From Ruminococcus sp. (GTDB taxonomy: Bacteria; Bacillota; Clostridia; Oscillospirales; Ruminococcaceae): a DNA stretch of 64,000 bases. The stretch spans positions 13,439 to 77,438 of the forward strand of contig JAFYUM010000011.1 of assembly GCA_017558505.1 (NCBI GenBank), written 5' to 3'. Shown one piece after another: positions 2,625 to 47,712 of this stretch (the stretch's first letter is position 1; each line of letters opens with the position of its first letter). A program made the translations under genes and the position numbers. The notes under the pieces were generated by a model. The model had not been told where the DNA came from and ran no database searches. It saw only the letters and a list, made by a program, of their open reading frames with translations.

Positions 2625-3092
2625 TTACTTGATTATCATAATAGGCTGGTCGAACTCAACAGCCTGACCGTCGGAAACGAGAATACGCTCTACAACGCCG
2701 TCAAATTCAGACTGCACCTCGTTCATAAGCTTCATTGATTCGATAATCATGATGATATCGCCTTTTTTAACCTTATCGCCCACCTTTACAAATGGCGGTT
2801 TATCGGGAGAGGGTGCCTGATAGAAAGTGCCTACAATGGGGGATTTCACTATATTACCCTCGGGAACAGCCTCAGCCTTGGGAGCTTCCGCAGTCTGTAC
2901 AGGAGCAGAGGCAGGAGTAGCCATTGGCATACCCATAGGCATTACAGGGGCAGGGGGAGGGCATTTTTTGCCCTTAATTGTTATATTGCAGTCGTCGTTG
3001 GAAATTGTGATTTCCGAAAGCTCGTTGTCTTTTACAATTTTAGCGAGTCTTTCAATTTTATCAAGCTCAACTGTATCAAGAATTTTACACAT
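2625..3092 (-). CDS. accB: Biotin carboxyl carrier protein
   Basis: Pro/Ala linker, SPIVGTFY, biotinylation motif ESMKLM. Confidence 0.96.
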   Translation of the reverse strand: MCKILDTVELDKIERLAKIVKDNELSEITISNDDCNITIKGKKCPPPAPVMPMGMPMATPASAPVQTAEAPKAEAVPEGNIVKSPIVGTFYQAPSPDKPPFVKVGDKVKKGDIIMIIESMKLMNEVQSEFDGVVERILVSDGQAVEFDQPIMIIK

Positions 3093-3103
3093 AGGCTTAC
3101 TCC

Positions 3104-8979: not shown

Positions 8980-9808
8980 ATACGGACTTATCGGTCATCC
9001 GCTGGGACATTCAATGTCGCCGCTTATACATAAAAAGCTTTTTGCCTTAAGCGGAATTGAGGATTACAGCTATGACCTTATTGATATTGCGCCTGAAAAG
9101 CTTGCAGAGAGCGAGAGTAGGCTCCGTGAGCTGAAAGGCTTTAATATAACAATTCCCTATAAAACGGAAATTATTCCAATGACTGACAAACTTGGAGAAA
9201 GTGCGGAGAGATACAGTTCCGTCAACTGTATCTCCAACGACAACGGTGTTATGACAGGATATAATACTGATTGTGACGGCTTTCTCCGTTCGGCGGAACT
9301 TCTTCCCCTTGGCGGAAAGGTGCTTCTTGTAGGCTGCGGCGGAGTTGGCAGAATGATTGCCATTGAAGCGGCTTTGCACGGTGCGGAGCTCACAATTGCC
9401 GTTCTTCCCGATTCTGTGAAAAATGCACAGCTTGTTATGGCGGAGATACTCGCAAAGTGCGGTAACGCTTCTGTTAAAATATGCCTTGTGAACGAAATAG
9501 AGGGTGGCTTTGATTTGCTTGTCAACGCAACCCCTGTGGGTATGTATCCGAAGGTTGATACCTGTCCCGTTTCCGATGAGGTAATTGAAAATTCTCTCTC
9601 CGTTTTTGATGTTATCTACAATCCTATTGAAACTCTCCTTGTGAGAAAGGCACGGGCTCTTGGACGTACTGCTGTAGGTGGTGCGGCAATGCTTGTGTAT
9701 CAGGCGGTAAAGGCTCACGAGCTTTGGTACGGCGGTGAATTTGATACGGAGGATATATCTGCTATTATCAAGGATGTTGAAGCCGAAGTTGAAAAGATGA
9801 ACGGGTGA
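8972..9808 (+). CDS. aroE: Shikimate dehydrogenase
   Basis: GLIGHPLGHSMSP, GFNITIPYK, GYNTD, GCGGVGR, NATPVGM, DVIYNP. Confidence 0.94.
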   Translation: MDKYGLIGHPLGHSMSPLIHKKLFALSGIEDYSYDLIDIAPEKLAESESRLRELKGFNITIPYKTEIIPMTDKLGESAERYSSVNCISNDNGVMTGYNTDCDGFLRSAELLPLGGKVLLVGCGGVGRMIAIEAALHGAELTIAVLPDSVKNAQLVMAEILAKCGNASVKICLVNEIEGGFDLLVNATPVGMYPKVDTCPVSDEVIENSLSVFDVIYNPIETLLVRKARALGRTAVGGAAMLVYQAVKAHELWYGGEFDTEDISAIIKDVEAEVEKMNG

Positions 9809-9814
9809 ATTGGT

Positions 9815-10315
9815 ATGACTGTATTTTTATGCGGATTTATGGGCTGCGGCAAAACGACTGTAGGCAGGCTTGCCGCAAGGAAGCTTGGTTATGGCTTCTG
9901 TGATTCCGATGAACTTATTGTGGAAAGAGAGGGTATGAGTATACCCGAAATATTTGAACGAAAGGGCGAGCCTTATTTCCGACAGGTCGAGGCTGAGGTT
10001 ATAAAGTCCCTCTGTGGAAAAAAGGCTGTTGTAGCCTGCGGTGGAGGTGCAATGCTCAATCCCGACTCTGCGGCTGCTGCGGCTAAGGCAGGAGTTGTCA
10101 TATTCCTTGAACTTGACTTTGAAGCCTGCTACAGCCGTATAAGCGGTGACTCAAATCGTCCAATTGTTGTCAATTCCACAAAGGATGAGCTTGAGGAACG
10201 CTTCAATGCCCGCTATGATGTGTATAAGAAACATTCCACAATACAAATAGACGGCAGCGGAAGTCCTATGAGTACGGTAGAGCTCATTGTTGACGCTGTC
10301 AGAATGCTGAAGTGA
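9815..10315 (+). CDS. aroK: Shikimate kinase
   Basis: GFMGCGKTT P-loop, GEPYFRQVE, ACGGG, RP motif. Confidence 0.94.
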   Translation: MTVFLCGFMGCGKTTVGRLAARKLGYGFCDSDELIVEREGMSIPEIFERKGEPYFRQVEAEVIKSLCGKKAVVACGGGAMLNPDSAAAAAKAGVVIFLELDFEACYSRISGDSNRPIVVNSTKDELEERFNARYDVYKKHSTIQIDGSGSPMSTVELIVDAVRMLK

Positions 10316-33236: not shown

Positions 33237-33285
33237 ATGCCGAATTGATTGAGAAGTAAATTCTTGATTAATTCGGCATTTTTTG
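33237..33285 (+). terminator. Strong terminator insulating the rSAM cluster
   Basis: 19-bp stem ATGCCGAATTGATTGAGAA/TTCTTGATTAATTCGGCAT whose three mismatches are all G-U on the plus strand, followed by T-run. Confidence 0.8.
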
Positions 33286-33320
33286 TTTGCTCAATATTGT
33301 AAAAATAGAGTTAAAATACT

Positions 33321-33391
33321 GTTTACTCCCTTTTTTATATCGTTTACTCTCTGTTTGTTGTAAATATACGAATAAGATGATATCATATAAT
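33321..33391 (+). promoter_or_regulatory. Activator-dependent (LytTR-type) promoter of the RiPP operon
   Basis: GTTTACTC at 33321 and 33342 (21-bp period), 36 nt, then TATAAT at 33386-33391; no -35 consensus. Confidence 0.72.
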
Positions 33392-33453
33392 CACAGAATA
33401 AATGTCATACGGATTTCACAAGAAATACTAACTGAATGAAAATGGAGGATGAA

Positions 33454-34749
33454 ATGAATTTATTTGAAGAAAAAGTTGCGTTTGCAGGATATGTAAGAAT
33501 TTACAATAGAGAGAAACGTACTCTTATTGCCAGTACTGAAAATAACAAATGCATTATGGTGAGCAGGGAAATATCCGATATTTTTAAACAGGCCGAAAAA
33601 GAAAACCTTACTTTTGGTGAACTGTTTGATAGCGTTGAAGACGAAGCATCACGTGAACTTTTAGTTCATCTCAGTGAGAAACTTCAAAGTTTGGCAATGT
33701 GGAAGCATATTGAAGATGAGCTCGAAAAAATCCCGAGAAGTGAAGTGTCTATTGATATAACAAACAATTGTAATCTCAGATGTAAGCATTGTTGTATATC
33801 GGCAGGAGATAATAAAAGAGGTTGTGATTTAACTACAAATGAGCTTTTAGAGCTCGCGGACAGAATTCTTCTGTTAAATCCCGCGACAATTTCCGTTTCT
33901 GGAGGTGAGCCTTTAGTCAGAAAGGATTTTAGAGAGTTCACTGATAGATTAAGAAGCAAATATAAAGGTACACTTATACTTATGACAAATGCGGTTCTTA
34001 TTAATAACGATGAGATTGCTAAATATCTTACAGATAATTATGATGGATTTGATATAAGTCTTGATGGATATGATGAAGAGACATGTGCTATGATAAGAGG
34101 CGAAGGTGTATTTGAAAAAGTGCTCAACGCTGTAAAGCTTTTACAAAAATATAATGGAAAAATAAGTCTGTCAATGGTTAAGACGAAGAAAACAGCTGAT
34201 AACATTATAAAATTTTCAGAGCTTTGTGAAAAACTGGGTGTGAAATCTCTTGTAAGATGTTTTGAACCAATGGGCAGAGGAGAAAAAAATAAGGATTTGT
34301 TTGAAATTAAAGAGGATCATACATGCGCTTGCGGTACGGATTGGACAAGGGAAAAAGATGTGTTCGAAAAAAAGAAAATGTATACAATAGCTCCGAACAT
34401 TTTTTCTTGTCATGGCGCTAAAACAGAGTTTCAGATAGATCAGAAGGGTGATGTATTCCCGTGTCCTATGTTTATGTCAATAGAATACAAACTTTTTAAT
34501 ATACTTGATATTGAAAATCCTGAAGAATTTATATCCGAAAAAAAATACATGGAATCAGACGGATATAAGAACTTCATGAAGTTTATGCCTTATAATTGTG
34601 ATAATTGTAAGGGTTGTGATAAGCAACTGTTTTGTTTTAGTTGTGCAGCAACTGTAAGAAAATGCGTTGAGGAGAATGATTTCGAATACTTCTGCAATGA
34701 ATGTGGAAAGTATTACGATATGTATTGGGAGAATCATGGGACTGTTTAA
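33454..34749 (+). CDS. Radical SAM/SPASM peptide maturase 1 with N-terminal RRE-like extension
   Basis: CNLRCKHC, SGGEPL, MTNA, ISLDG, MIRG, C...GDVFPC...CxxCxxCx5CxxC...C; about 90-aa beta/helical N-terminal domain; GGAGG RBS before 33454. Confidence 0.9.
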   Translation: MNLFEEKVAFAGYVRIYNREKRTLIASTENNKCIMVSREISDIFKQAEKENLTFGELFDSVEDEASRELLVHLSEKLQSLAMWKHIEDELEKIPRSEVSIDITNNCNLRCKHCCISAGDNKRGCDLTTNELLELADRILLLNPATISVSGGEPLVRKDFREFTDRLRSKYKGTLILMTNAVLINNDEIAKYLTDNYDGFDISLDGYDEETCAMIRGEGVFEKVLNAVKLLQKYNGKISLSMVKTKKTADNIIKFSELCEKLGVKSLVRCFEPMGRGEKNKDLFEIKEDHTCACGTDWTREKDVFEKKKMYTIAPNIFSCHGAKTEFQIDQKGDVFPCPMFMSIEYKLFNILDIENPEEFISEKKYMESDGYKNFMKFMPYNCDNCKGCDKQLFCFSCAATVRKCVEENDFEYFCNECGKYYDMYWENHGTV

Positions 34750-35737
34750 TATATGGCTTACTGAAGCTTGTAATCTTAAATGTACATATTGCTATGAAAG
34801 TAACAAAAGCATGAAGTATATGCAGAAAGATACCATTGAAAGAACAATAGAATTTATCTGTAGAAAAAGTGTTGGTATGGATAGTTGTATTATAAATTTT
34901 CATGGTGGAGAGCCTTTACTTGCATTTGATAACATTTTGTATTTTGTTTCGGAATTTAATAAACGTGGAGTTAGTGCAGTATATTCACTTACTACAAATG
35001 GCGTCTTACTTGATGAAGAAAAGATAAAAAGGTTTTATGAAAACAAGATTTATCTTTCATTAAGTCTTGATGGCAACGCTGAGGTAAATGATAAATGTAG
35101 AATATCCTGTGACGGAAAAGGGACATATGAAAAGGTAGCAGTAAAAATTCCATTAATAATGAAATATTACCCTGAACTTCGAATCAGGATGACAGTTACA
35201 CCGGAAACTTCAATTCATTTATTTGATTCAGTAAAACACATAAGTCAATTAGGCGGAAAACTTATTATTGCTGTTCCAGACCTTTATGATAATAAATGGA
35301 CGAAGGAACTTATAAACAACGTTGAAAAACAAGTAATTGATTTGTATAAAGAATTTAAAGATAGTGATACGGAATTTCTGTTTTTTGAAAAGCTTGAGAA
35401 TTGCAAAAAAGGTAAATGCGATGGCGGAATTAATGAGTTCAACATAAGCATAGAGGGAAAGCTTTATCCTTGTTCGTTTGTTACGGGTAATGATGACTAT
35501 CTCATAGGTAATGTTGTTGATGATGTTGATGAAGCTTTATTATCAAAATTCAGTGCTGTTTATGGAAAATCAAATTACACATGCAGTGGATGTGGACGTG
35601 AAGAAATATGTACCGCTTCAAGATGTAAGTTTGTAAATGCAATGATGACCGGAGATCCTTTAAAAGTACATCCTGTTATTTGTACTTTTGAACATATGAT
35701 CAATAACATTTCAAGAAAAATTAAAAATCAAGTATAA
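34736..35737 (+). CDS. Radical SAM/SPASM maturase 2, no RRE
   Basis: CNLKCTYC at residues 12-19, FHGGEPLL, TTNG, LSLDG, CDGG...GKLYPC, CxxCx5Cx4C...C; overlaps the end of rSAM1. Confidence 0.9.
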   Translation: MGLFNIWLTEACNLKCTYCYESNKSMKYMQKDTIERTIEFICRKSVGMDSCIINFHGGEPLLAFDNILYFVSEFNKRGVSAVYSLTTNGVLLDEEKIKRFYENKIYLSLSLDGNAEVNDKCRISCDGKGTYEKVAVKIPLIMKYYPELRIRMTVTPETSIHLFDSVKHISQLGGKLIIAVPDLYDNKWTKELINNVEKQVIDLYKEFKDSDTEFLFFEKLENCKKGKCDGGINEFNISIEGKLYPCSFVTGNDDYLIGNVVDDVDEALLSKFSAVYGKSNYTCSGCGREEICTASRCKFVNAMMTGDPLKVHPVICTFEHMINNISRKIKNQV

Positions 35738-35766
35738 AAATAAGCGTTAAAAGGATAGGATAATCT

Positions 35767-35997
35767 ATGAAAGTGGAAAGAATCGGGAATGCATATTTTA
35801 ATGAATTTGAAGGTATGGCGCAGAGTTGTTGGAATGAATGTGCTGAATACCGTGGTAAAACATCGATGATAAATACGCTTATAAGGAATGCGGGATTTAA
35901 GGGCGACGGAACCGATAAAGAAAAAGAAATGCTGGAGAAGGCTTTTGGAAGTTATTGCTGCAAAGAACGATCTCCGAAAACCAGTATGTTCTGGTGA
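35767..35997 (+). CDS. Putative RiPP precursor 1 (76 aa)
   Basis: NEFEGMAQ-SCWNECAEYRGKTS...GFKGD...FGSYCCKE.SPKTSMFW; own RBS; paralogy with three neighbours. Confidence 0.85.
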   Translation: MKVERIGNAYFNEFEGMAQSCWNECAEYRGKTSMINTLIRNAGFKGDGTDKEKEMLEKAFGSYCCKERSPKTSMFW

Positions 35998-36019
35998 GTA
36001 AACACAAGGAGAATTCGCA

Positions 36020-36250
36020 ATGAAGATTGAAAAAATAGATGAAGTATATATAAATGAGTTTGATGGAGAAGCACAGGGGTGTTTTGCAGATTGTGCAGAA
36101 TATCGTGGAAAAACATCGGGCGTTTATAAACAGCTTTCTGTTTCCGGGTATTATGGTGATGGATCAGACAGGAACACACAGGAGATAATTAAAGTATTCG
36201 GTAGTTATTGTTATAAGGAGTACTCGCCAAAAACCTGTATGTACTGGTGA
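36020..36250 (+). CDS. Putative RiPP precursor 2 (76 aa)
   Basis: NEFDGEAQ-GCFADCAEYRGKTS...GYYGD...FGSYCYKE.SPKTCMYW; AAGGAG RBS. Confidence 0.85.
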   Translation: MKIEKIDEVYINEFDGEAQGCFADCAEYRGKTSGVYKQLSVSGYYGDGSDRNTQEIIKVFGSYCYKEYSPKTCMYW

Positions 36251-36283
36251 TTATAGATATTAAATATTAAAGGAGGTGATATC

Positions 36284-36523
36284 GTGAAGATTGAGAGAAT
36301 TGAAAATGGATTTGTAAACGAATTTGAGGGCGAGGCACAGAACTGCTGGGATGATTGTACAGAGTACAGAGGCAAGACATCCGGAATTAATTCTCTGATC
36401 AGACGTGCAGGTTATAAGGGCGACGCTTCAAGATCAGACCTTAATCAACTTGCAGAAATCAAAGATGTTTTTGGCTACTACTGCTACAGAGAAAAGACAC
36501 CCAAGACAAGTATTTACCTTTAA
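36284..36523 (+). CDS. Putative RiPP precursor 3 (79 aa, GTG start)
   Basis: NEFEGEAQ-NCWDDCTEYRGKTS...FGYYCYRE.TPKTSIYL; AAGGAGGT RBS. Confidence 0.85.
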   Translation: MKIERIENGFVNEFEGEAQNCWDDCTEYRGKTSGINSLIRRAGYKGDASRSDLNQLAEIKDVFGYYCYREKTPKTSIYL

Positions 36524-36562
36524 TGGTAGATAAAATATAAAAATCTTAAGGAGGATAAAATT

Positions 36563-36802
36563 ATGAAAATTGAGAAAATTGAAAATGGATTTGTAAACGA
36601 ATTTGAGGGCGAAGCACAGAGCTGCTGGGATGATTGTACAGAGTACAGAGGCAAGACATCCGGAATTAATTCTCTGATCAGACGTGCAGGTTATAAGGGC
36701 GACGCTTCAAGATCAGACCTTAATCATCTTGCAGAAATCAAAGATGTTTTTGGTTACTACTGCTACAGAGAAAAGACACCCAAGACATGTATTTATTGGT
36801 AA
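36563..36802 (+). CDS. Putative RiPP precursor 4 (79 aa)
   Basis: 74 of 79 residues identical to precursor 3; ends PKTCIYW; AAGGAGG RBS. Confidence 0.85.
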   Translation: MKIEKIENGFVNEFEGEAQSCWDDCTEYRGKTSGINSLIRRAGYKGDASRSDLNHLAEIKDVFGYYCYREKTPKTCIYW

Positions 36803-36840
36803 TCCATTAAGAATAGGAGATATCAGTACATTTTACGGCA

Positions 36841-36867
36841 TACTGCACAAAGTTTATTTGTGCAGTA
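36841..36867 (+). other. Stem-loop after the precursor array, no U-tract
   Basis: TACTGCACAA-AGTTTAT-TTGTGCAGTA. Confidence 0.6.
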
Positions 36868-36895
36868 CTGCTGTAATAAAGTACTTGTAAAAAAT

Positions 36896-37837
36896 ATGAA
36901 ATATAATATAGCTATAATCGACAGCAGTGTTGATTATTCTCTTATCTCTGAAAAAAGCAGGGATAAAATCGTCACATATAATATGGTAGAACCCGAAGGC
37001 AATATGAGTCATGCAGCTTATGTTATAGATACTTTGTTTAAATATAGCAATAATATAAATAAAATCTATTTATATGATGTTTTCGGTGATAATCCGCGTG
37101 CAAGCGGCAGAGCTGTAATCAATTCTCTTGAAAAAATCGCAACACAGGATGATGTGCGCCTTATACTCGTTTGTCTTACTTTGGCAAATAAAGAGAGATT
37201 TGAAGAAACAAAAGAGATATGCAATTTACTTGCTGCTCAAAACAAGGTTATTATAGCATCATATGCAAATCGTGGAACAGATACTGATAATCATTATCCT
37301 GCATGTTTCGAATGTACGATAGGTGTATATCAGGGGGCTTATGAAAAAGAACCGTTTTTTGGTAAAATATCTGATAAATCTGATTTGCCTGGAGATGCAT
37401 CTCCGGAGTTTATTAAAACAGGAGAAAATCAATATGCTATATTTGGCGGTACAAGTAAAGCTGTTCCTAAGCTTGCTGCTTATATAATAAATATGTTTGA
37501 GGAAGACAATATAAACATCGACAAAGTGCTGGAATATCTTGCTCGGAAGAGTAATGATGAAGATGATAATATTCTTGAACTTTTAAAAAGCAATTGCGAA
37601 GGTTCTGTAAAGAATGAAAACAAAGCACTTAACAGAGAACTCTTTCAAAAATACAAAAAATATAATGATATATCAGATGAATGTGATGATGCATCAATAA
37701 TGCAGCTCGGAAACAATGCGGGTGAATATGTTTCAGAGGTTTTAAATGAATATAAATCTGATATGACTCCCGATATGCTTATGTGTAGAGATTTTTACAC
37801 CGTAAAGTCTTTGAGCAAATTTGTTGACAGGGGCTGA
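36896..37837 (+). CDS. Cytoplasmic S8 (subtilisin-like) peptidase with C-terminal ACP-like extension (start uncertain, 36860 or 36896)
   Basis: IAIIDS (Asp), SHAAYV (His), ASYAN (oxyanion Asn), YPA, GGTSKAVP (Ser); no signal peptide. Confidence 0.8.
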   Translation: MKYNIAIIDSSVDYSLISEKSRDKIVTYNMVEPEGNMSHAAYVIDTLFKYSNNINKIYLYDVFGDNPRASGRAVINSLEKIATQDDVRLILVCLTLANKERFEETKEICNLLAAQNKVIIASYANRGTDTDNHYPACFECTIGVYQGAYEKEPFFGKISDKSDLPGDASPEFIKTGENQYAIFGGTSKAVPKLAAYIINMFEEDNINIDKVLEYLARKSNDEDDNILELLKSNCEGSVKNENKALNRELFQKYKKYNDISDECDDASIMQLGNNAGEYVSEVLNEYKSDMTPDMLMCRDFYTVKSLSKFVDRG

Positions 37838-37841
37838 AAAA

Positions 37842-39527
37842 ATGAATAAAAGTAAAAACAGAAGTTTTTTTACTAAACTCAAAAATGTAGAAAGAAAATA
37901 CCATCTTGATATTTTCTGGTGTATTTTGAAAAAATTCAAAAAATATTATTTCATAGCCATGGTTATTGCACTTCTGAAATCGGTAACAGGATACGCAGCT
38001 CCGCTTATAAATATCCTGATAATTGACCATGGTATCGGAAAAAAGAATATTAATTTGTTATTGCTTGCGGTTATGCTCATGATAGCATTATATGTGATAT
38101 GTGAGGTAATTGCTTATATTGATACAAAATTCAATATGTTTTTTCGATATAAAATCGAATTATTTGTAAAAAAGAAAGTAATATCATATTGTATATACAA
38201 CAGTTTTTCTGAAAATTCGTCTGGAGAATATGAAACATTAATAACAAGCGATTCAGAAAGAGTTGTTTCTCTTTCTTTGTCGCTTTTTTCAAGCATAGCT
38301 CTTAGTCTGTTTAATACCATAACATCATTGGTTGTACTTTTGAAAATACAGCCTCTGCTATCAATCCCGGCTGTTATTATGCAGGTTGTCATGGTTCTTA
38401 TTCGTCTTAAAACTTCAAATATAGAAGAGAAAAACGGTTCGATGGCAAGAGAAAGCTTTGTTAAGTTATGGTCTGTAATAACTGAATTGGTTAATAATAT
38501 AAGAAATATAGCTATTCTTGGTGCAGGTAGATATGCAGAAAAACGTTTTGAAAATGCGATGAAAAATGATTATAATGTAAGAAGCAGAAATAATTTGTTT
38601 AGTACTAAGATATGCAGTTTTGTTTCAGTTGGAATGTCTGCTTCAACTTGTATTCTTCTTGCATTAGGTGGTATATTAGTTATATTGGAAAAGATGACGG
38701 TGGGAAAACTTGTAACATTTAATCAGTATGCAGGTAATTTGTCAACACCGTTGCTTGAACTATTTACTATACCTACTGATATGAGTGCAGAGCTTGCATC
38801 TCTTGATCGCGTGGCACATATATTCAATTACAAATATGATAAGGATATAAATCAACTTAAACACGTTTCGAGTATTAAGGTAGATAAATTGTCATTTTCA
38901 TATGGTGAGAAGAAGATTCTTGAAAATGTAGTGGCTGAATTTGAAAAAGGAACCAAGTATTATATAAGGGGCAAAAGTGGTTCAGGTAAGTCTACATTTA
39001 TTAATCTTATATCAGGCAGGCAGTCATATGAAAGCGGTGAGATTTTTTATGACGGAATTTCTCTTAAAGATATTGATGTAGAAAGTCGAATGGAACTTAT
39101 ATCTTTTGTTTCACAGGATGCGGTATTATTTAACGATTCTATAGAAAATAATATAATACTTGATCTAGAATATAATAAAGAAAAATTAGAAAAAGTATGT
39201 AAATGTTGCAGAATTTATGATGATATAATAAATCTTCCGGACAGCTTTTCAACTATGGTTTCGGAGAATGGCATTAATTTTTCCGGTGGACAGAAAAGCA
39301 GACTTTGTTTAGCAAGAGCGTTGTATCAAGAGAAACCAATAATTATTATAGATGAAGTAACGGCAGGTCTTGATAGTGACACCGAAAGTGAACTCCGTGA
39401 CAATCTTGTTAATGAATTATCGGACAAAATTACGTTGATAATTACGCATAGCAATAATTTTGTTATGTTGAATTCTGTAATTTATTACCTGAATAAAAAT
39501 CATCTCAATGTAAAGGAGAATACATAA
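37842..39527 (+). CDS. ABC exporter (TMD+NBD) without C39 peptidase domain
   Basis: 6-TM N-terminus, GKSGSGKST, FSGGQ, IIIIDE. Confidence 0.9.
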   Translation: MNKSKNRSFFTKLKNVERKYHLDIFWCILKKFKKYYFIAMVIALLKSVTGYAAPLINILIIDHGIGKKNINLLLLAVMLMIALYVICEVIAYIDTKFNMFFRYKIELFVKKKVISYCIYNSFSENSSGEYETLITSDSERVVSLSLSLFSSIALSLFNTITSLVVLLKIQPLLSIPAVIMQVVMVLIRLKTSNIEEKNGSMARESFVKLWSVITELVNNIRNIAILGAGRYAEKRFENAMKNDYNVRSRNNLFSTKICSFVSVGMSASTCILLALGGILVILEKMTVGKLVTFNQYAGNLSTPLLELFTIPTDMSAELASLDRVAHIFNYKYDKDINQLKHVSSIKVDKLSFSYGEKKILENVVAEFEKGTKYYIRGKSGSGKSTFINLISGRQSYESGEIFYDGISLKDIDVESRMELISFVSQDAVLFNDSIENNIILDLEYNKEKLEKVCKCCRIYDDIINLPDSFSTMVSENGINFSGGQKSRLCLARALYQEKPIIIIDEVTAGLDSDTESELRDNLVNELSDKITLIITHSNNFVMLNSVIYYLNKNHLNVKENT

Positions 39528-41900
39528 ATGTTCAAATTAGCCTACAGATACATGAAAAGCAACATAAAAAGCAGTATCAGAGCAGTGTTTGGAATTGCTT
39601 TTTCGATAATGCTGATGTTTAGTCTTGTGCAGATAAGCGGCTATATTATGGATAGTTTTAAAGAACTTGTCAGTACAGGAATGCGTCGTGACTTCACAGT
39701 GTATAACATAAGTGGTGAAGAAACAATTGAAATTCATCATAAACTTACAGAATCCCCGGTTACAGATAAACAAAAGATTATGTCTATGATCTGGGTAGGT
39801 TCTGTTTATGAAACAGAACTTGAAGAATATAAAGTGCTTGGAGTTTCGGGAGATATTGATTATTTTAAAGATACCAGAATGATAAGTAATTCTCTACCAA
39901 CTGGCAACAATGAAATATGCATAGAAAAAAGTTATGCTGACAGAAAAAATCTAAAAGCAGGTGATGAAATATCACTTAATATATTCTTCTTTAATGAATT
40001 GAGCGGTGAAAGTGCAGAGAAGACATTTGATTTTACAATAAGCAGTATTATTGATGATCTTGTTGATGATGGAACGTATTTTTTTACAAGTCTTCCCTGT
40101 GCAGTAAACATTATTAAAGAAAGTGGCATAAGCAGCGATAATCTTTCTAACTCAATTGCTTTTGAAACAATCGAGGGCGATTATGATGTTGAAAAGACAG
40201 TTGATGCAGAATATCTGATTAAAGATATATTAGCGACAAAAAATCCTGAGAAAGCAGAAACTTTTTTTAAGGAATGTATCATAAATAATGATCAGAAATC
40301 TATGAATTATGACGAAAAAGGTACATTTACTTCGGTTTCCTTCGGAGTGCTTGCGATTTCTGTGATTATTGCGTTATGTATGATTATTTTTGTTTATAAT
40401 TCTCTTAATATAAGTCTTATTCAGAAACTGGATAATCTTGCTGTTATGAGATGTATAGGAATGAATAACCGACAGCTTGCACAAATGGTGCTTGCAGAGG
40501 CTATAATTCTTACTAATATTTCATTTGTTGCAGGTGTGGTAGCTGGTAATTTGCTGAATATGCTGGTGGCAGAAAAAATTGTCGGAACGCTTATACAGGG
40601 TGGAGCAGATGTGAGTATTTCCCAAAACCCAATTATATATTTAACAGTGTATATACTTGCAATGCTTTCTGTTCTTATTGCTTGTGTGCGTCTTATATTG
40701 AGATTTTATAAAATAAAGCCTATTAACCTTTCTAAATTTGGAAGCGGGAAGGAAATAAAGAGCAATTTTTCCAAGGGTGGATTAAGTGGAAAAAGATATT
40801 TCTATGGTTTTGCTACAAGAAATATAAAGCGTAATTTTTCTAAAAGTATCACACAGATTGTAACAGTTTCTTTGAGCTATCTCCTCTGTTTTGTAATTTG
40901 TAATACATTTCTTACTGTAAGTACAGGTTCATCCAAAAGTCTTGCTGATATATGTGATTATTCGTTAAAGGCAGATATTGTTCTCAGTCAGAGTTGCTTT
41001 ACTGAAGTTGATGTGGATGTTTTGAAAGATAAATACAAGATTGATACTATTTATACACAATCAGATTTAATGAATGAAGTTGAATGTAATGTTAACGATA
41101 ATTCAGTTCAGCCTATTGTATATAGTAATAATCTTGCAAGTGTACTTGCAAAAAACCTGAAGCTTGATTATAATAGTGAAAAGCCTTTTGCGGTACTTAT
41201 CGGTGAAGGATGCTCTGATAAAAAGGATATAAGTGTTAAGGTAAATGATAAGGAACACATAATTAAGCTTAATGGTTCATATGATGATGTTTCTGATAGC
41301 TTGCAAAGTGTACTTCGTTCAATTGGAACATATCTTCTCATGAATGAGAAAGCTGCTTCTGAAATTGGTTGTAAAACAGATACATTTTCGTCTGTTTTAC
41401 TTGAAACAAATGAAAAAATCACAATCGAGTCAATTAATGAAGAATTTGAAGGTATTGAGTTGGTTGTTGAAGATATGAACGAAGGTAAAAAACAGAGTGC
41501 ACAGCAGCTTCTTGGAATAGTAATGCTTGCGATTTATATTGTAGCTGCAACTATCTTATTAAGCTTTATGATAATCAATAATACCATAAGAGAAAACGCT
41601 GTTACAAGAAAGCGTGAATTTGGAATTATGTGTGCTATTGGTATGAAACGAAAAAGTCTTTGTAAAATATGCTGTTGGGAAAATGTAATACTCAACGTTA
41701 TATCATGTGTTGCAGGCACAGTTTTGTCATTGCCGATAAATATATATATTACTATGACGCTTCATAACAATATACGTGTTTCTGCGACAGCTTACGTAGT
41801 TGTTATTGCGGTATTTACAACTGTAACTGCGTTTTTCTCATATTTATTCATGAAGAAATATTCGAACAGTTCCATTGTTGATATGATTAAGATTGATTAA
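39528..41900 (+). CDS. FtsX/MacB-type ABC permease with two FtsX domains
   Basis: LAVMRCIGMNNRQL and REFGIMCAIGMKRKSL FtsX motifs, two large extracellular domains. Confidence 0.85.
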   Translation: MFKLAYRYMKSNIKSSIRAVFGIAFSIMLMFSLVQISGYIMDSFKELVSTGMRRDFTVYNISGEETIEIHHKLTESPVTDKQKIMSMIWVGSVYETELEEYKVLGVSGDIDYFKDTRMISNSLPTGNNEICIEKSYADRKNLKAGDEISLNIFFFNELSGESAEKTFDFTISSIIDDLVDDGTYFFTSLPCAVNIIKESGISSDNLSNSIAFETIEGDYDVEKTVDAEYLIKDILATKNPEKAETFFKECIINNDQKSMNYDEKGTFTSVSFGVLAISVIIALCMIIFVYNSLNISLIQKLDNLAVMRCIGMNNRQLAQMVLAEAIILTNISFVAGVVAGNLLNMLVAEKIVGTLIQGGADVSISQNPIIYLTVYILAMLSVLIACVRLILRFYKIKPINLSKFGSGKEIKSNFSKGGLSGKRYFYGFATRNIKRNFSKSITQIVTVSLSYLLCFVICNTFLTVSTGSSKSLADICDYSLKADIVLSQSCFTEVDVDVLKDKYKIDTIYTQSDLMNEVECNVNDNSVQPIVYSNNLASVLAKNLKLDYNSEKPFAVLIGEGCSDKKDISVKVNDKEHIIKLNGSYDDVSDSLQSVLRSIGTYLLMNEKAASEIGCKTDTFSSVLLETNEKITIESINEEFEGIELVVEDMNEGKKQSAQQLLGIVMLAIYIVAATILLSFMIINNTIRENAVTRKREFGIMCAIGMKRKSLCKICCWENVILNVISCVAGTVLSLPINIYITMTLHNNIRVSATAYVVVIAVFTTVTAFFSYLFMKKYSNSSIVDMIKID

Positions 41901-41916
41901 TTCAGGAGGATAGATT

Positions 41917-42585
41917 ATGTCAGTAATTACAGTGAAAAATCTCAATAAATATTATAAAACAGGAAATGAAAGCTATCATGCATTAAAAAACATTAATTTT
42001 GAGGTTGGTGAGGGTGAATTTGTAGTAATCCTTGGCCAGAGTGGCTCTGGTAAGAGTACTTTGCTTAATATAATAGGCGGTCTTGATGACTATGATTCGG
42101 GTGATGTATGTCTCAATGCTATGAATTATAAGGATACAGATGATATCACGATGTCAAATTTCAGATGCAGTACAATAGGGTTTGTATTCCAGTCATACAA
42201 TCTTATACCAGTTCTTAATGTGTATGAAAATATAGTTTTTCCTGTAAACATAAGTAATAAAAAAGTAGATGAGGAATATATCAGTCAGCTTATGACAAAA
42301 CTTGGTATAGCGGACAAGAGAAAATCATTTCCATCCATGCTGTCAGGTGGTCAGCAGCAGAGGGTAGCGATTGCCAGAGCCCTTGCGAATAAGCCGAAAA
42401 TCATTTTAGCTGATGAGCCTACAGGAAATCTTGATACAATTACAGGAAATGATGTTTTACAGATATTGCTTGATGGTGTTCATACCTATGGTCAGACTCT
42501 GGTTATGATAACACATAATCCAAGTATTGCTGAATATGCTGATCGTGTGATAAGAATTGAGAATGGAGTAATTGTGCAGCAATAA
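41917..42585 (+). CDS. LolD/MacB-type ABC ATP-binding protein
   Basis: GQSGSGKST, IGFVFQSYNLI, LSGGQQQRVAIARAL, ILADEPTGNLD. Confidence 0.93.
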   Translation: MSVITVKNLNKYYKTGNESYHALKNINFEVGEGEFVVILGQSGSGKSTLLNIIGGLDDYDSGDVCLNAMNYKDTDDITMSNFRCSTIGFVFQSYNLIPVLNVYENIVFPVNISNKKVDEEYISQLMTKLGIADKRKSFPSMLSGGQQQRVAIARALANKPKIILADEPTGNLDTITGNDVLQILLDGVHTYGQTLVMITHNPSIAEYADRVIRIENGVIVQQ

Positions 42586-42623
42586 AAGTGTGATTGCTTT
42601 TTGGATGAAAGGAAATGTGTTGT

Positions 42624-43064
42624 ATGCAGATAGTGGAAAATCAAAATTTATATTTTGATAATGTTCTTTCATATGTTTCTGGTATGGATAATACGCAGAC
42701 TATGGGGCTTGTAAATCATATCTTGAAGAATCTTGAAAGTATAGGACTTGAAGTGAGAGAAAAAGTTATGTTCACCTATTCTGATTCGGAAACAGAATTT
42801 CTTATTCCTTTGAAAAATGAAAAAACGTATGAAAACAGTGGGTATAGAATTAAACCAAAATTCAAGATGATAAATGCTGTGAAAATCAGATTTGAAGGGG
42901 ATTTTGGCGACATTGATATAGCGTTGAAAGCGTTGGAAAAGTATATATCTGAAAAAAAGTACAGGGTGATTTCACGGCCATATTATGTAGTTGTAAGAAG
43001 TAATGTGAATTCAAACAGTGGGATTTGGGATATATATATCAGTATTGACGGTAATATATTTTAG
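42624..43064 (+). CDS. GyrI-like/DUF5085-type small-molecule-binding protein
   Basis: About 146 aa, beta-alpha-beta-beta pattern, AVKIRFEG...LEKYISEKKY...PYYVV...WDIYISIDGNIF. Confidence 0.55.
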   Translation: MQIVENQNLYFDNVLSYVSGMDNTQTMGLVNHILKNLESIGLEVREKVMFTYSDSETEFLIPLKNEKTYENSGYRIKPKFKMINAVKIRFEGDFGDIDIALKALEKYISEKKYRVISRPYYVVVRSNVNSNSGIWDIYISIDGNIF

Positions 43065-43305: not shown

Positions 43306-43341
43306 AAAAACCTTCTTAAACATGATGTTTTAAGAAGGTTT
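43306..43341 (-). terminator. Probable terminator of the micro-ORF transcript
   Basis: Perfect 13-bp stem AAACCTTCTTAAA/TTTAAGAAGGTTT, ending in U5 on the minus strand. Confidence 0.65.
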
Positions 43342-43366: not shown

Positions 43367-43395
43367 TTGACAATTGGCTCGAAATGTTGTATAAT
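43367..43395 (+). promoter_or_regulatory. Consensus sigmaA promoter of the LytTR/HK pair
   Basis: TTGACA-17-TATAAT. Confidence 0.78.
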
Positions 43396-43418: not shown

Positions 43419-43460
43419 TTAATACCAGAGTGAATTTAACCATTCTACTAATTTTGACAT
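43419..43460 (-). CDS. 13-aa micro-peptide MSKLVEWLNSLWY (candidate signalling peptide)
   Basis: GGAGG (43472-43468) 7 nt before ATG; own promoter upstream and terminator downstream. Confidence 0.62.
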   Translation of the reverse strand: MSKLVEWLNSLWY

Positions 43461-43535
43461 TTTACTTCCTCCATTTTGTTTAATTATAGTAATATAGAAC
43501 TTTAGAAATGATTTTAACACGTGTTTATTAGCATG

Positions 43536-43606
43536 ATTATATAATAACTCATTCGGAGAAATTATGCCACAAAAGTGGAGCGAAAGGATATGTTTTTTGA
43601 GTAAAC
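43536..43606 (-). promoter_or_regulatory. LytTR-type promoter of the micro-peptide
   Basis: GTTTACTC (43606-43599), N13, TTTCGCTC (43585-43578), N36, TATAAT (43541-43536); same spacing as at 33321-33391. Confidence 0.65.
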
Positions 43607-43645
43607 GGGAAATAAAAATGATTTTGGAATTTATTTGGAGGAAAA

Positions 43646-44359
43646 ATGAAAATAGCAATATGTGATGATCAAAAGATTATGCGCGAACTTCTGAAAACAC
43701 AATTGGAAAAATACGCTCATAAGAAAAAATTGTGTTTTGTTTATAATGAATACGATAACGGGTTTGAGATGATTAAAAATGCCATAGATAATGATCTGAT
43801 TTTTATGGATTATCAAATGGACAAGATAGATGGGATACAAACCGCTAAAGAATTAAGAAAAAAGAAAATTGAAACGCCTATTATATTTCTTACAAGTTTT
43901 CCAGACGTTGTTTTCGATGTTTTTGAAGTAAAAGCATATCGTTTTTTGACAAAACCAATTAGCGAACAACAATTAACCAATGCGCTTGATTCACTTATTG
44001 AAGAATTTGCAGAAGAAAACTTTCTTGTCATAAAAACCGATGATGGAATAAAAAGAATAAATATCAATGATATAATATGTGCAGAAGCAGTCGATAAGTA
44101 CTGTTATATAAGTACGACCAGTGGCACAGTTTTATATAAAAAGACATTATCTGTTTTAGAAGAACAATTGCCATCAAATTTGTTTTTTCGTTCACACAGA
44201 ACATATCTTGTAGGTTATAGTCATATTCTGTCTCATACTAATACGGAAATCTTACTTGACAGTAAAGAAAAAGCGTTGATAAGTAAAACGAAAGCTTCGG
44301 CTTTTAAAAAAAATTTTTTAGAATATATAAAGAATTACAGTATGAGAGGGCGAAGTTAA
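43646..44359 (+). CDS. LytTR-family (AgrA-like) response regulator
   Basis: IAICDD, LIFMD, FLTS, AYRFLTKP, FFRSHRTYLV; GGAGG RBS. Confidence 0.93.
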   Translation: MKIAICDDQKIMRELLKTQLEKYAHKKKLCFVYNEYDNGFEMIKNAIDNDLIFMDYQMDKIDGIQTAKELRKKKIETPIIFLTSFPDVVFDVFEVKAYRFLTKPISEQQLTNALDSLIEEFAEENFLVIKTDDGIKRININDIICAEAVDKYCYISTTSGTVLYKKTLSVLEEQLPSNLFFRSHRTYLVGYSHILSHTNTEILLDSKEKALISKTKASAFKKNFLEYIKNYSMRGRS

Positions 44360-44360
44360 G

Positions 44361-45668
44361 ATGGTAGCGGGAATTATTGACGGTTTATTGTGCTTTCTGA
44401 TTGATTTTCTTTTTGTGAATTTTATTTCAGAAATGTTTTCTTTTAAAGTTGATTGGTGTAAAACTTCAGTAATACTTGTTCTATATACTTCATTTTCAGA
44501 ATTTATTTACCATATAAGCTCGCCTGAATTGCCAGTTGCATTCAAAGTATTGATAATGCTTTTTATTCCGCTGCGTACTTTTATTGTATGCTTAATTATA
44601 TTCAAAAAATTCGACTGGAATATACTCTATTTTACGTTGATGCACATTGTATTGTCCCAGATTCCTGATTCAATGATTGTAATTATTGCTCCGGATATAA
44701 GTGAATTTTTAAGAAATATTCTTGTGCCGCTTGTTATAATAATTTCACTTTTTTTAATCTGGCTTTTAATAAAAAACAGAAACAGATTCAATATGTTTCG
44801 TGACAGTTATAATAAAATCAACTGGCTAACCAGAATGATATTGTTGTTTTCAGTGTGGATATTTACATTGTACCTTACAGTTGTACTTGATCCGGAAGAA
44901 AGACCATTTTCTGTATTTATAAGACGAATGCTGACTTTCCCAATGTTTATAATAATGGGCATTTTAGTAGCATTTATCGCATCAGTTTCAGTTTCAGATA
45001 AGAAAAATAACGAAACAGCACAAATTCTTGCAAATCAGATTGACGATCAGGTAAGATACTATGAAAAATTAATCAAGATAAATGATGATATCCGAGGGTT
45101 CAGACATGATTTCAAAAACCATCTTATATGTCTGAGAAGCTTGCTTAACAGTGGACTGACCTCTCAGGCGATTGAATACCTTGATGATATAGAGCATATA
45201 TCATCCGTAACAACAGATAAATACAAAACAGGAAACATTATTGTCGATTCACTTCTTGATGATAAATCAGACAAGGCAGCTACTGTTTCGGCAACAATAG
45301 AATTCAGTGGATTTGTACCGACTATAGGAATAAGCAATGCGGATATATGTATAATACTGTCGAACGCTTTGGATAATGCTATTGAAGCTTGTGAAAGAAA
45401 CGGCGGAGGTATCATTAATATTAAATCTGATTTCAGACAGGGATATTTCTTTCTTGAAATATCAAATCCTGTACCTGTTGATGTCAAGATACAAAACACG
45501 CAGCGCTTAACAACGTCAAAAAGAGATAAAAATATTCATGGTTTCGGAATGCTTAATATATATAAAACGGCTGAAAAATATAACGGTAATTCAAAAGCTA
45601 CAGCTGAAAACGGTGTATTTACGCTTAATGTGGAATTGCAGCTTTCTGACGAATTTTCATCAATATGA
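44361..45668 (+). CDS. AgrC/ComD-like (HPK10) GHKL membrane histidine kinase
   Basis: 6-7 TM sensor, FRHDFKNHL H-box, ILSNALDNAIEAC, TTSK...HGFGMLNI. Confidence 0.92.
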   Translation: MVAGIIDGLLCFLIDFLFVNFISEMFSFKVDWCKTSVILVLYTSFSEFIYHISSPELPVAFKVLIMLFIPLRTFIVCLIIFKKFDWNILYFTLMHIVLSQIPDSMIVIIAPDISEFLRNILVPLVIIISLFLIWLLIKNRNRFNMFRDSYNKINWLTRMILLFSVWIFTLYLTVVLDPEERPFSVFIRRMLTFPMFIIMGILVAFIASVSVSDKKNNETAQILANQIDDQVRYYEKLIKINDDIRGFRHDFKNHLICLRSLLNSGLTSQAIEYLDDIEHISSVTTDKYKTGNIIVDSLLDDKSDKAATVSATIEFSGFVPTIGISNADICIILSNALDNAIEACERNGGGIINIKSDFRQGYFFLEISNPVPVDVKIQNTQRLTTSKRDKNIHGFGMLNIYKTAEKYNGNSKATAENGVFTLNVELQLSDEFSSI

Positions 45669-45863: not shown

Positions 45864-47705
45864 TTACCACAACGGATTTTGTCCGGTGGATACGGCAGAA
45901 TAATATTCCAGTATTCTTGAAGCATCAGAGGAGTCGATAACTGTATCGCCGTTTACATCGGCGGCAAGGAGCTGAAACTCTGACAAAACAGAGCCGATAC
46001 CTGTCTGTGTAGCTGCATATTCTGCAAGAATAAGCGAACCGTCTGAAGAATCAATAATTTTATCCTCATTTACATCGCCAAGAACATATTCGGGCTGTCC
46101 GATTATATGATAATCCATATTGTATGTGTTTATATAATCCTGAGCCGTTGAATTTTCGTGACAATAAATTCTTGCCGTTGAGGGTATAGTATCCTCCGAG
46201 TCGTAAATTACACATTCCGGATTTTCGATAGTGATTTTTTTCAGCGATGTACATTCAAAAAATGCACCGTTTCCAATAATATTTACGCTTTGCGGCAGTG
46301 TAATATCATCGAGACTTTCGCAGAGGGAAAATGACATTTCGCCTATGCTTTCCACAGCTTCGGGAATGGTGATCTCTGCAAGACTTTCGCACCATGAAAA
46401 CATATTGTTCTCAATAGTGCTTATGTTTTTCGGCAGAGTGATTGATGTCAGCTCTGTGCAGGCGAAAAATGCACCTTTGCCTATGTGTGAAATGTTGTCG
46501 GGCAGTTCTACGGAAACAAGTCCGCACGAATAAAAAGCTTCTGTTCCGATATCTGTGATGTTATCAGGGAGTTTGATTTCTTTAAGATTAAGGCATTCAT
46601 AAAATGCAACATCTCCCACGGAGATAAGACTATAAGGCAGGGTAATTGTTTTCAGATTATGGCAATAAGCAAATAGCCATTCAGGAAGCTGTTTTATACC
46701 ATTAGGGAAATTAACTGAATTAAGCTCTGTGCAGCCGAAAAAGGCACCGTCAGCTAATGCCGTGACTCCGTCGGGAATTGAAATATCTTCTGTACAATTT
46801 TTACCGTCTATGAGTATTCCTTTTGAGATGACAAGTGGATTTTTTGCTCTTTCGGCGTCAAGCCACGGTGTTCCCTCAAAGGCATTTATTCCTATGCTGC
46901 TTATGCTTCCGGAAATATCCATCTGCGCCAGTTTTTTACAGCCAGAAAAGGCATATTCGCCTACATAGCAAACGGTATCAGGCATTGCTACAGATGTTAT
47001 GTTCGTACAATAGGCGAAAGCACCTCCGCATATTGCAGATACTCCCTCGGGGATAACAATATCGTTTTCGCACAGACTGCCGTCGATAAGGAGATTATTG
47101 AATGTAACAATAGGTGATACTGACCGTTGTCCATCGAGCCATGGAGTTGATTCAAAGGCAGATGTGCCGATATATGTCACACTTTCGGGAATGTTTACGT
47201 TTTCAAGTTCCCGACAGAAGCCGAAAGAAGATGAGCCGATTTCTTCAAGGGTATCGGGGAGAGTAACTTCTGTCAGGTTTATGCAGTCTGAAAAAGCATA
47301 GTTGCCGATAGAAACAAGGGTATCGGGGAGCTGTACTGTCTGTAAGGCGGAACAGCCGCGGAAAACCTCGTCGGGGATATGGTCAATTGTTGAGGGCAGG
47401 GAAACTTCTGTAAGAGAACTGCAGAATGAAAATGAACTGCTTCCTATTGAAGTAACTCCCTCCTCTATGGTTACAGATGTGATAAAATCTCTGTAATCTG
47501 CCCATACAGTATAATCGGAGGTGCGCCAATCGGTCATATCTCCATGACCGCTTATTGTAAGAGCTCCGGTATTATCAAGAATCCAGTAAAGGCTGTCTCC
47601 GCAGGTTCCCTCCACCGTGCTGCCGGCAGCAAGAGAATATCCGTTTATGGATAAAATGGCAGTTGTACAGGTGCTGATGAAGGAAATATATTTTTTGAGT
47701 TTCAT
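45864..47705 (-). CDS. Secreted BspA-type LRR protein with C-terminal dockerin
   Basis: Signal peptide; many 22-23 aa LxxVxLPxxLxxIGxxAFxxC repeats; GDVNEDKIIDSSDGS...ADVNGDTVIDSSDAS. Confidence 0.92.
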   Translation of the reverse strand: MKLKKYISFISTCTTAILSINGYSLAAGSTVEGTCGDSLYWILDNTGALTISGHGDMTDWRTSDYTVWADYRDFITSVTIEEGVTSIGSSSFSFCSSLTEVSLPSTIDHIPDEVFRGCSALQTVQLPDTLVSIGNYAFSDCINLTEVTLPDTLEEIGSSSFGFCRELENVNIPESVTYIGTSAFESTPWLDGQRSVSPIVTFNNLLIDGSLCENDIVIPEGVSAICGGAFAYCTNITSVAMPDTVCYVGEYAFSGCKKLAQMDISGSISSIGINAFEGTPWLDAERAKNPLVISKGILIDGKNCTEDISIPDGVTALADGAFFGCTELNSVNFPNGIKQLPEWLFAYCHNLKTITLPYSLISVGDVAFYECLNLKEIKLPDNITDIGTEAFYSCGLVSVELPDNISHIGKGAFFACTELTSITLPKNISTIENNMFSWCESLAEITIPEAVESIGEMSFSLCESLDDITLPQSVNIIGNGAFFECTSLKKITIENPECVIYDSEDTIPSTARIYCHENSTAQDYINTYNMDYHIIGQPEYVLGDVNEDKIIDSSDGSLILAEYAATQTGIGSVLSEFQLLAADVNGDTVIDSSDASRILEYYSAVSTGQNPLW

Positions 47706-47712
47706 ATATTAA

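Follow-up and report, generated by a model that had tools for sequence, protein, structure and literature searches.

In a stretch of 64,000 nucleotides from a Ruminococcus sp. contig (JAFYUM010000011.1, positions 13,439 to 77,438; below, "the window" means this whole stretch), we identified two copies of a two-box promoter site, one in front of an operon for radical S-adenosylmethionine (rSAM) enzymes and one beside the gene of a LytTR response regulator, on the strand opposite to it. It is probable that the phosphorylated regulator binds both copies as a tandem dimer and activates two transcription units, namely the rSAM operon, which would produce a peptide synthesized on ribosomes and modified after translation (RiPP), and a short minus-strand RNA that carries a mini-peptide open reading frame (ORF). 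The elements on which this reading turns are the following.

33319..33349, plus strand: operator 1, direct repeats ctGTTTACTC (33319-28) and tcGTTTACTC (33340-49), 21 bp start-to-start, at about -71 to -44 of the predicted transcription start
43578..43608, minus strand: operator 2, direct repeats ccGTTTACTC (43608-43599) and ccTTTCGCTC (43587-43578), with a 21-bp period
43646..44359, plus strand: response regulator, with a receiver domain (PF00072, E = 6.4e-20) and a LytTR domain (PF04397, E = 1.1e-17)
44361..45668, plus strand: histidine kinase, with six membrane segments in residues 1-211, the H-box FRHDFKNHL and a GHKL domain (HATPase_c_5)
43419..43460, minus strand: mini-ORF MSKLVEWLNSLWY, 13 codons and a stop, with the Shine-Dalgarno sequence GGAGG at 43472-43468, 7 nt before the ATG

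Read directly from the sequence, the plus-strand site consists of GTTTACTC (33321-33328), N13, GTTTACTC (33342-33349), N36 and TATAAT (33386-33391), and the minus-strand site of GTTTACTC (43606-43599), N13, TTTCGCTC (43585-43578), N36 and TATAAT (43541-43536); the coordinates and spacings given for both in a preliminary description of this DNA are exact. The single 8-mer GTTTACTC is unremarkable in the window (4 matches vs. 1.55 expected, with 8 of 100 shuffles reaching 4). The two-box pattern with at most 2 mismatches has 2 matches in 64 kb, which are these same two sites (0.2 expected; 3 of 100 shuffles reach 2). A weight matrix of 34 nt, trained on 49 sites that all come from unrelated representative genomes, scores operator 1 at 31.4 bits and operator 2 at 29.9 bits, whereas the next match in the window reaches 4.4 bits and the maxima over 20 shuffled windows range from 2.0 to 18.1 bits. 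Because the matrix and the pattern scan agree, we count exactly two such sites in the window, and the search for further boxes that had been suggested, carried out here over these 64 kb, yielded no third composite site. A third GTTTACTC, at 35996-36003 on the minus strand, falls as an isolated box within a precursor gene, lacks a second box 21 bp away and was treated as a chance occurrence.

Comparison with related loci shows that the boxes follow the regulator. Relatives were collected by protein-database searches, exact-protein look-ups and a regulator profile scan of representative genomes, the last of which gave 80 loci (598 kb) with regulator homologues of 35-60 % identity; querying genome contigs with the rSAM1 protein alone brought up no relative. 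Exact TTYRCTC pairs in the 80 loci are spaced 21 bp start-to-start in 51 cases; none of the remaining spacings between 8 and 59 bp has more than 2 cases, and shuffles give about 0.2. Where the regulator is at least about 49 % identical, 33 of 41 loci carry a box pair at most 260 bp upstream of the regulator gene and on the opposite strand, and the boxes are largely gone where its identity falls below about 45 %. In the window, box 1 of operator 2 lies 40 bp from the regulator ATG, likewise on the strand opposite to the regulator, and an exact box pair occupies the operator 2 position in all six same-species contigs compared. In a rearranged relative (contigs L007-L012; regulator 77 % identical), the two-component system flanks the operon on its opposite side. 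The two promoters nonetheless retain the boxes, the N13 spacer and unchanged -10 offsets, and the flanks have diverged. Its sites read ATTCACTC-N13-ATTCGCTC before rSAM1 and ATTCACTC-N13-TTTCACTC before a 13-codon ORF, MSKLVEWLNMLWS.

Loci in which orthologues of the rSAM operon (about 50 % identity) stand under other regulators or under none served as negative controls: agr modules with AgrB (L096-L099), an OmpR-type regulator (R. albus, L014) and a regulator-free plasmid (L100/L101). No TTYRCTC pair was found in these orthologous operons, even at 2 mismatches, so the boxes travel with the regulator clade and not with the cargo. The modules of L096-L099 are true agr modules beside orthologous rSAM operons and use different repeats. 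To judge from these comparisons, the rSAM RiPP cargo and its quorum-sensing controller are swapped as separate modules; dozens of Ruminococcus species show the layout, and the boxes track the regulator clade over about 40 species. The exclusive 21-bp spacing, the fixed position, the rearranged relative and the negative controls thus provide four independent lines of support for the proposal, made in the preliminary description, that both sites are targets of the LytTR regulator encoded in the cluster itself. The plasmid of L100/L101, on which the rSAM RiPP cassette has no regulator, is a Rep3/Mob plasmid.

The preliminary description had also likened the sites to LytTR direct repeats of 21-bp period, and the period is indeed 21 bp at both window sites and across the family, in agreement with the published LytTR arrangement. 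The repeats bound by AgrA lie upstream of the -35 element, are imperfect, measure 9 bp and are separated by 12-13 bp (PMC5600425), ComE operators have the form direct repeat 1 (DR1)-12 nt-DR2 (PMC4005675), and in the S. mutans LytTR systems the repeats lie 4-11 bp upstream of -35 (PMC6193735). The corresponding geometry in the window is one of 9-10 bp repeats, 12 bp apart, that end 8 bp before the -35 position. Comparison of the family consensus nCCGTTTAC to the broad LytTR consensus [TA][AC][CA]GTTN[AG][TG] shows agreement at 7 of the 8 specified positions; the one window box scored, box 1 of operator 1 (ACTGTTTAC), agrees at 6 of 8. The best-conserved part of the box here, ACTC, extends past the broad LytTR consensus of PMC5600425.

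To define the promoters downstream of the boxes, we aligned 57 sites, which gave the consensus CCGTTtACTC-N11-CCGTTtACTCC..t.TtG-(20 nt)-TAtAATA..atCA. Placed on the window, it yields the following elements.

33358..33363, plus strand: weak -35-like TTGTAA, separated by 8 bp from box 2 upstream and by 17 bp from TATCAT downstream, with TTG as its family-conserved part (promoter scan, 57-site consensus)
33378..33391, plus strand: -10 region TGaTATCATATAAT, with the family -10 TATCAT at 33381-86, a TG extension at 33378-79, and an overlapping TATAAT at 33386-91, 5 bp downstream
33393, plus strand: predicted start of transcription, on the A of the CA conserved in the family, 7 nt past the family -10
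43570-43565, minus strand: weak -35-like GTGGCA, 17-18 bp 5' of TATTAT (promoter scan)
43536..43546, minus strand: -10 region TATTATATAAT, with the family -10 TATTAT at 43546-41 and TATAAT at 43541-36
43534, minus strand: predicted start of the mini-peptide RNA, from the consensus alignment and a homologous R. albus 5' end, giving an RNA of about 227 nt up to its terminator

The family-conserved -10 starts 31 nt after box 2, as opposed to the 36 nt of the preliminary description. The TATAAT at N36 that had been named as the -10 is present at both sites, but the -10 of the family as a whole sits 5 bp upstream of it. We demoted the N36 hexamer as the functional -10, since only some of the 57 sites (this lineage and a few others) have it in perfect form, since the upstream hexamer, a TTG 17 bp before it and a CA 7 nt after it are family-wide, and since one mapped 5' end fits the upstream hexamer. 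With the -10 displaced by 5 bp, the family -10 and the conserved CA point to starts at 33393 and 43534, which we consider more likely than those previously placed near 33398 and 43529. The assertion that neither promoter has a -35 is correct in that no good -35 exists, but a weak -35-like element occupies the -35 position of both, where the family consensus has a TTG that begins 8 bp past the end of box 2 and is followed, after 17 bp, by the family -10. Individual -35 hexamers are poor throughout (the R. albus equivalent is TATCGT), and both promoters are best described, from these alignments, as -35-poor and activator-type rather than -35-less. Promoter-like matches as such are about as frequent in the window as expected (74 vs. 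68).

RNA evidence for the predicted start comes from metatranscriptome contigs on an R. albus 8-type locus (L017). The contig of run X22 covers L017 3544-3810 and then runs into ATCGTCGGACTGT, which together with the G at 3810 is the Illumina 5' RNA adapter in reverse complement. The adapter junction therefore places the 5' end of a minus-strand RNA at A3809, which is the base predicted from the consensus, 7 nt after TATAAT (3821-3816), and is equivalent to the +1 in the window; we regard this agreement as supportive, not conclusive. Contigs from six further runs cover the region, and those bounded near the predicted start span 3569-3821, 3569-3802 and 3595-3785. Contigs starting at 3559-3569, as well as the X22 contig at 3544, begin at a hairpin and T-run terminator. 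As the contig ends fall at this terminator and at the predicted start, they point to a discrete RNA of about 265 nt over the L017 mini-ORF, MLDWFDWWGW. At an R. flavefaciens-type locus (L031), low-depth metatranscriptome contigs reading across the site were uninformative, and runs X36-X40 turned out to be DNA-like. The L017 boxes and -10 show zero variants in four DNA-like runs, and a segment of about 76 bp (L017 ~3903-3917), between the operator and the regulator start codon, varies among R. albus populations (X25, X26, X31, X36).

The preliminary description did not mention what operator 2 stands upstream of, namely the 13-codon ORF MSKLVEWLNSLWY. This mini-ORF is unannotated, and gene callers on identical contigs predict nothing there. 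A 79-aa TTG ORF (43419-43658, minus strand) that encloses it was rejected: it spans the operator and the promoter, is not called, and the Shine-Dalgarno sequence fronts the internal ATG. In essentially all relatives, an ORF of 7-20 codons with a Shine-Dalgarno sequence, rich in Trp, Phe and Leu, lies downstream of the divergent operator; examples are MLEWFDWWLW, MQDWFDFWGWFL, MFGWWDW, MGGFWDFIFGR, MWNWLFG, MTWSTILDFLFGNK, MGDFLDWLFGGRK and MWNWLFNYIFRKG. Three loci (L025, L026, L028; minus strand, 3000-3960) carry 2-3 tandem MGGFWDFIFGR genes at a spacing of about 280-300 bp, and every copy has a two-box operator and a -10 to itself. The mini-peptide of L009, MSKLVEWLNMLWS, has synonymous changes at codons V5, L8 and L11 compared to that of the window, and replacements at residues 10 and 13. 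Two structural peculiarities of these RNAs and promoters are recorded here. The 5' leader of the mini-peptide RNA contains a perfect palindrome, AACACGTGTT (43516-43525, minus strand), that is also present in L008 and L009 and absent from more distant members. In L007, an inverted-repeat insert of about 155 bp (~9730-9884), resembling a miniature inverted-repeat transposable element, separates box 2 of the mini-peptide promoter from the -10; the sibling contigs L008-L010 lack this insert, which would cut the link between the peptide gene and its operator.

The kinase has the architecture of the AgrC/ComD type, although its match to the AgrC model (E = 1e-4) is far under the model cut-off, and the regulator retains the conserved receiver columns D7, D8, D55, T83 and K103. 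Comparison of the sensor part of the kinase to its core shows that sensor identity stays within 0-6 points of core identity in pairs of loci with identical peptides, whereas it trails the core where the peptides differ (median 16.5 points). The gap is widest in L051/L052, with identities of 100 % for the regulator, 95 % for the kinase core and 57 % for the sensor. Sensor divergence correlates with peptide divergence (Spearman rho 0.73, 33 phylogenetically non-independent pairs). Such co-divergence is, on sequence comparison, the signature of a pheromone-receptor pair, and on balance we favour the mini-peptide as the ligand of the kinase, which would close an auto-induction loop.

The regulator and kinase genes appear to be transcribed toward operator 2 from the far side of the mini-ORF, from a promoter that faces the mini-peptide promoter.

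43367..43395, plus strand: perfect sigma-70 promoter TTGACA-17-TATAAT, toward the regulator-kinase operon, predicted start about 43402
43308..43341, minus strand: hairpin terminator (13-bp stem and T-run) that ends the mini-peptide RNA

Since this sigma-70 promoter lies beyond the mini-ORF, its transcript would overlap the mini-peptide RNA in antisense by about 133 nt. The arrangement is common in the family: related loci totalling 314 kb hold 23 perfect promoters, of which 11 occupy the slot 200-405 bp upstream of the regulator, a facing promoter scoring at least 10/12 is present in 33 of 40 loci with a divergent box pair, and the predicted transcript overlap has a median of 139 nt in the 22 loci whose facing promoter scores at least 11/12. 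Between box 1 and the ribosome-binding site of the regulator there is no space for a promoter, which makes a start of the regulator-kinase mRNA near 43402 probable; from there the mRNA would traverse the mini-ORF in antisense and then operator 2. By analogy to other systems, the overlapping face-to-face transcripts could add transcriptional interference or antisense control.

In the mechanism that we infer, the polytopic kinase (44361-45668) would sense a signal and phosphorylate the regulator at D55, and a head-to-tail regulator dimer, binding in its phosphorylated form, would fill the two boxes and recruit RNA polymerase, activating rather than repressing both promoters. Switched on in this way would be an operon of about 9.7 kb for rSAM/RiPP production, export and immunity, read from ~33393, and a minus-strand RNA of about 230 nt, read from ~43534, that encodes the leaderless 13-residue MSKLVEWLNSLWY. 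The peptide would be secreted and sensed by the kinase as its signal, giving auto-induction. The regulator-kinase operon itself would be read from the sigma-70 promoter at 43367-43395, and the overlap of about 133 nt between the face-to-face transcripts may contribute to its control.

Several observations weigh against this mechanism. Box 2 of operator 2 (TTTCGCTC) differs from box 1 at three positions, and the co-occurrence of boxes and regulator is also compatible with a second, linked factor. The starts in the window are extrapolated from relatives, and of the two overlapping -10 hexamers either could be used. The 5'-end support consists of a single adapter-tagged assembled contig from one metatranscriptome, and fragment ends can acquire adapters; the assembled contigs carry no strand information, and three of those on L017 read past the predicted start (3563-3864, 3559-3897 and 3642-3954). 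No recognisable export or processing partner for the mini-peptide was found in the minimal module, and the shared ancestry of the peptide-sensor pairs, stated above, bears on their correlation.

The linked factor could be a paralogous LytTR regulator or an unrelated protein that binds the boxes, with the adjacent regulator merely linked to them. Some genomes do contain several paralogous two-component copies (L041/L046; L067/L083, from the same assemblies), all paralogous copies share the box consensus, so that cross-talk is possible, and our inspection covered 64 kb of the window genome. We nevertheless consider this quite improbable, given that the boxes track the regulator clade over so many species, vanish when the cargo has other regulators, fade at regulator identities below about 45 % and have the LytTR geometry. 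Chance, an AT-rich by-product or a duplicated promoter cassette could be invoked for the resemblance of the two sites, inasmuch as the single 8-mer is not significantly enriched and AT-rich DNA is rich in TATAAT-like hexamers; this explanation is effectively refuted by the two-box pattern and the independent matrix, which pick exactly two sites, by the exclusive 21-bp spacing over 598 kb, and by boxes that stay fixed where the flanks diverge. Binding by the regulator might also repress at both sites, and as operator 2 lies inside the transcribed regulator-kinase leader, a dimer bound there could form a roadblock to that transcript. For a repressor one would expect a site covering the -35, the -10 or +1, whereas the sites at about -71 to -44, 5' of a poor -35, occupy the activator position of AgrA, ComE and HdrR promoters, which makes repression very improbable.

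It is unlikely, although less so than the foregoing alternatives, that the regulator binds the boxes as proposed and the minus-strand RNA acts mainly as an antisense regulator in the manner of RNAIII, the ligand of the kinase being found elsewhere, for instance in the mature RiPP. The RNA fully overlaps the regulator-kinase leader in a conserved arrangement, no exporter or protease is evident for the mini-peptide, and auto-induction by the product is a known design of the lantibiotic type. Such a role is hard to reconcile with ORFs that keep their Shine-Dalgarno sequence, a length of 7-20 codons and an aromatic composition despite nucleotide divergence, with the synonymous changes in MSKLVEWLN between the window and L009, with a sensor domain that co-varies with the peptide, and with up to three tandem peptide genes that each have their own operator (L026). 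Furthermore, the module occurs with unrelated cargo or with none, and therefore this RiPP cannot be the ligand in general.

Comparison to known systems shows partial likeness to several of them. The agr system of S. aureus shares a LytTR regulator with a polytopic HPK10-type kinase, two imperfect direct repeats before a sub-optimal promoter, auto-induction, signal and regulator genes read from adjacent, oppositely oriented promoters, and a short induced RNA that encodes a small peptide (RNAIII encodes hld). Unlike agr, the window locus has no AgrD-type precursor and no AgrB (PF04647 was not found among the ten locus proteins scanned), and MSKLVEWLNSLWY contains no Cys that could form a thiolactone; the box is CCGTTYACTC and not ACAGTTAAG, and the promoters are face to face and overlapping, whereas agr P2/P3 are back to back. 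Peptides of the ComRS/Rgg-SHP type are very short, unmodified and aromatic or hydrophobic, some of them with WW motifs (XIP), as here. These systems also have a tiny unannotated ORF beside the receptor gene, often convergent with it, and rSAM RiPP cargo in streptococci (PMC13361665). Their peptides, however, are re-imported to cytoplasmic RRNPP/Rgg receptors, whereas a membrane kinase would act on a LytTR regulator here; among the locus proteins scanned no helix-turn-helix or tetratricopeptide-repeat (Rgg-type) receptor was found, the neighbours being the LytTR regulator and the GHKL kinase.

The ComCDE/BlpRH/PlnABCD systems resemble the window locus in their LytTR regulator and HPK10-type kinase, in DR1-12 nt-DR2 operators before the pheromone gene and the cargo (PMC4005675), in an unmodified linear peptide signal and in a peptide that diversifies into pherotypes along with the sensor. 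They differ in that their pheromones need a double-glycine leader and an ABC exporter with a C39 peptidase, whereas the peptides here are leaderless and of 7-20 codons (the 13-codon ORF has no GG motif and the ABC exporter of the locus no C39 peptidase domain), and in that they usually co-transcribe pheromone, kinase and regulator, which are convergent here. S. mutans HdrRM/BrsRM likewise have repeats 12 bp apart and combine auto-regulation with bacteriocin genes (PMC6193735), but their regulators lack a receiver and work with a membrane inhibitor and no kinase, whereas a receiver and a kinase are present here. Facing promoters occur in prgQ/prgX of pCF10 (E. faecalis), with an overlap of a couple of hundred nt and reciprocal RNA-mediated control (PMC3181467, PMC5552905). 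There, too, a pheromone-responsive promoter faces the regulator promoter and the transcripts overlap; PrgX is an RRNPP repressor with a different logic, and the overlap here is predicted from the sequence.

We found no published description of the system in the literature searched, including a 2025 rumen quorum-sensing review, which is not proof of its absence; the review covers only N-acyl-homoserine lactones (AHL), agr-type autoinducing peptides (AIP) and AI-2 as signals (PMC13131436). The LytTR operator itself works by a textbook mechanism, its recognition sequence being new; what sets the system apart is a mini-peptide that lacks a leader, a box particular to this family and promoters conserved in a face-to-face arrangement. 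Taking these together, we lean, with modest confidence, towards a widespread, undescribed two-component quorum-sensing system in Ruminococcus and related Oscillospiraceae, in which a leaderless aromatic pheromone of 7-20 residues, translated at nearly its mature length, and a six-helix kinase co-diversify into pherotypes, a CCGTTYACTC-N11-CCGTTYACTC operator provides the wiring, the peptide promoter and a consensus promoter of the kinase-regulator operon are directed against each other, and a portable module controls rSAM RiPP operons, GyrI-like binding proteins, secreted proteins and other cargo, with an antisense or interference layer that would sharpen the switch. The weight matrix is a sequence-defined handle with which a peptide-signalling regulon can be mapped in the chief fibre degraders among rumen and hindgut bacteria, and the unannotated 7-20 codon genes are candidate pheromones that can be synthesised directly. 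Pherotypes are predicted within R. albus and R. flavefaciens, and RiPP antibiotic clusters pass from one type of quorum-sensing controller to another. Should the leaderless peptides prove to be the ligands, a membrane histidine kinase would, unusually, sense a peptide made with neither a leader nor a dedicated processing enzyme.

Operator 1 lies 5' of the rSAM operon (33454..43064, plus strand), as the preliminary description had placed it. The operon and the terminator before it comprise the following features.

33237..33279, plus strand: intrinsic terminator, 19-bp stem and T-run, closing the upstream gene (terminator scan, inverted repeat)
33454-34749, plus strand: rSAM/SPASM protein 1
34667-35737, plus strand: ORF of rSAM/SPASM protein 2, PapB-like, with a gene-caller start near 34736 (185 bits, under the family cut-off of 340)
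35767-36802, plus strand: four precursor paralogues of 76-79 aa
36860-37837, plus strand: subtilisin-like protease
37821-39527, plus strand: ABC exporter, with ABC_membrane and ABC_tran domains only
39528-41900, plus strand: FtsX-type permease
41917-42585, plus strand: ABC ATPase
42624-43064, plus strand: GyrI-like protein of 146 aa

The terminator at 33237-33279 closes the upstream gene, and a new transcription unit therefore begins at operator 1. At the other end, the terminator of the mini-peptide RNA (43308-43341) is near-palindromic and so probably also ends the cargo operon on the plus strand. The four precursors share a conserved N-terminal MKIEKIxN..NEFEGEAQ.CW.DC.EYRGKTS and a Cys/Tyr-rich C-terminus (..GSYCYKEYSPKTCMYW), and none of them matched the Pfam or NCBIfam precursor families. 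Sequence searches of Pfam, NCBIfam and PDB with the 146/149-aa protein encoded at the end of the operon gave no match, and only fold comparison was informative: the product models as a stand-alone GyrI-like ligand-binder fold, with CTR107, CtaZ, STM3175, SbmC and the BmrR C-domain, which are ligand- or antibiotic-sequestering proteins, as the best PDB fold matches. On the strength of this model, the protein may have a role in immunity or peptide binding. Homologues of about 150 aa occur in L021, L027, L031, L034, L036, L038, L043, L046 and L048, and because the GyrI-like gene stands under its own TTYRCTC operator in other loci, we count it as a core regulon member.

Beyond the kinase gene, the minus strand encodes two large secreted leucine-rich-repeat proteins (45864-49950), the first with a C-terminal type I dockerin, which fits a cellulosome-bearing Ruminococcus host. 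The dockerin genes nearby and the gut-metagenome origins suggest that the window comes from an uncultured herbivore-gut Ruminococcus.

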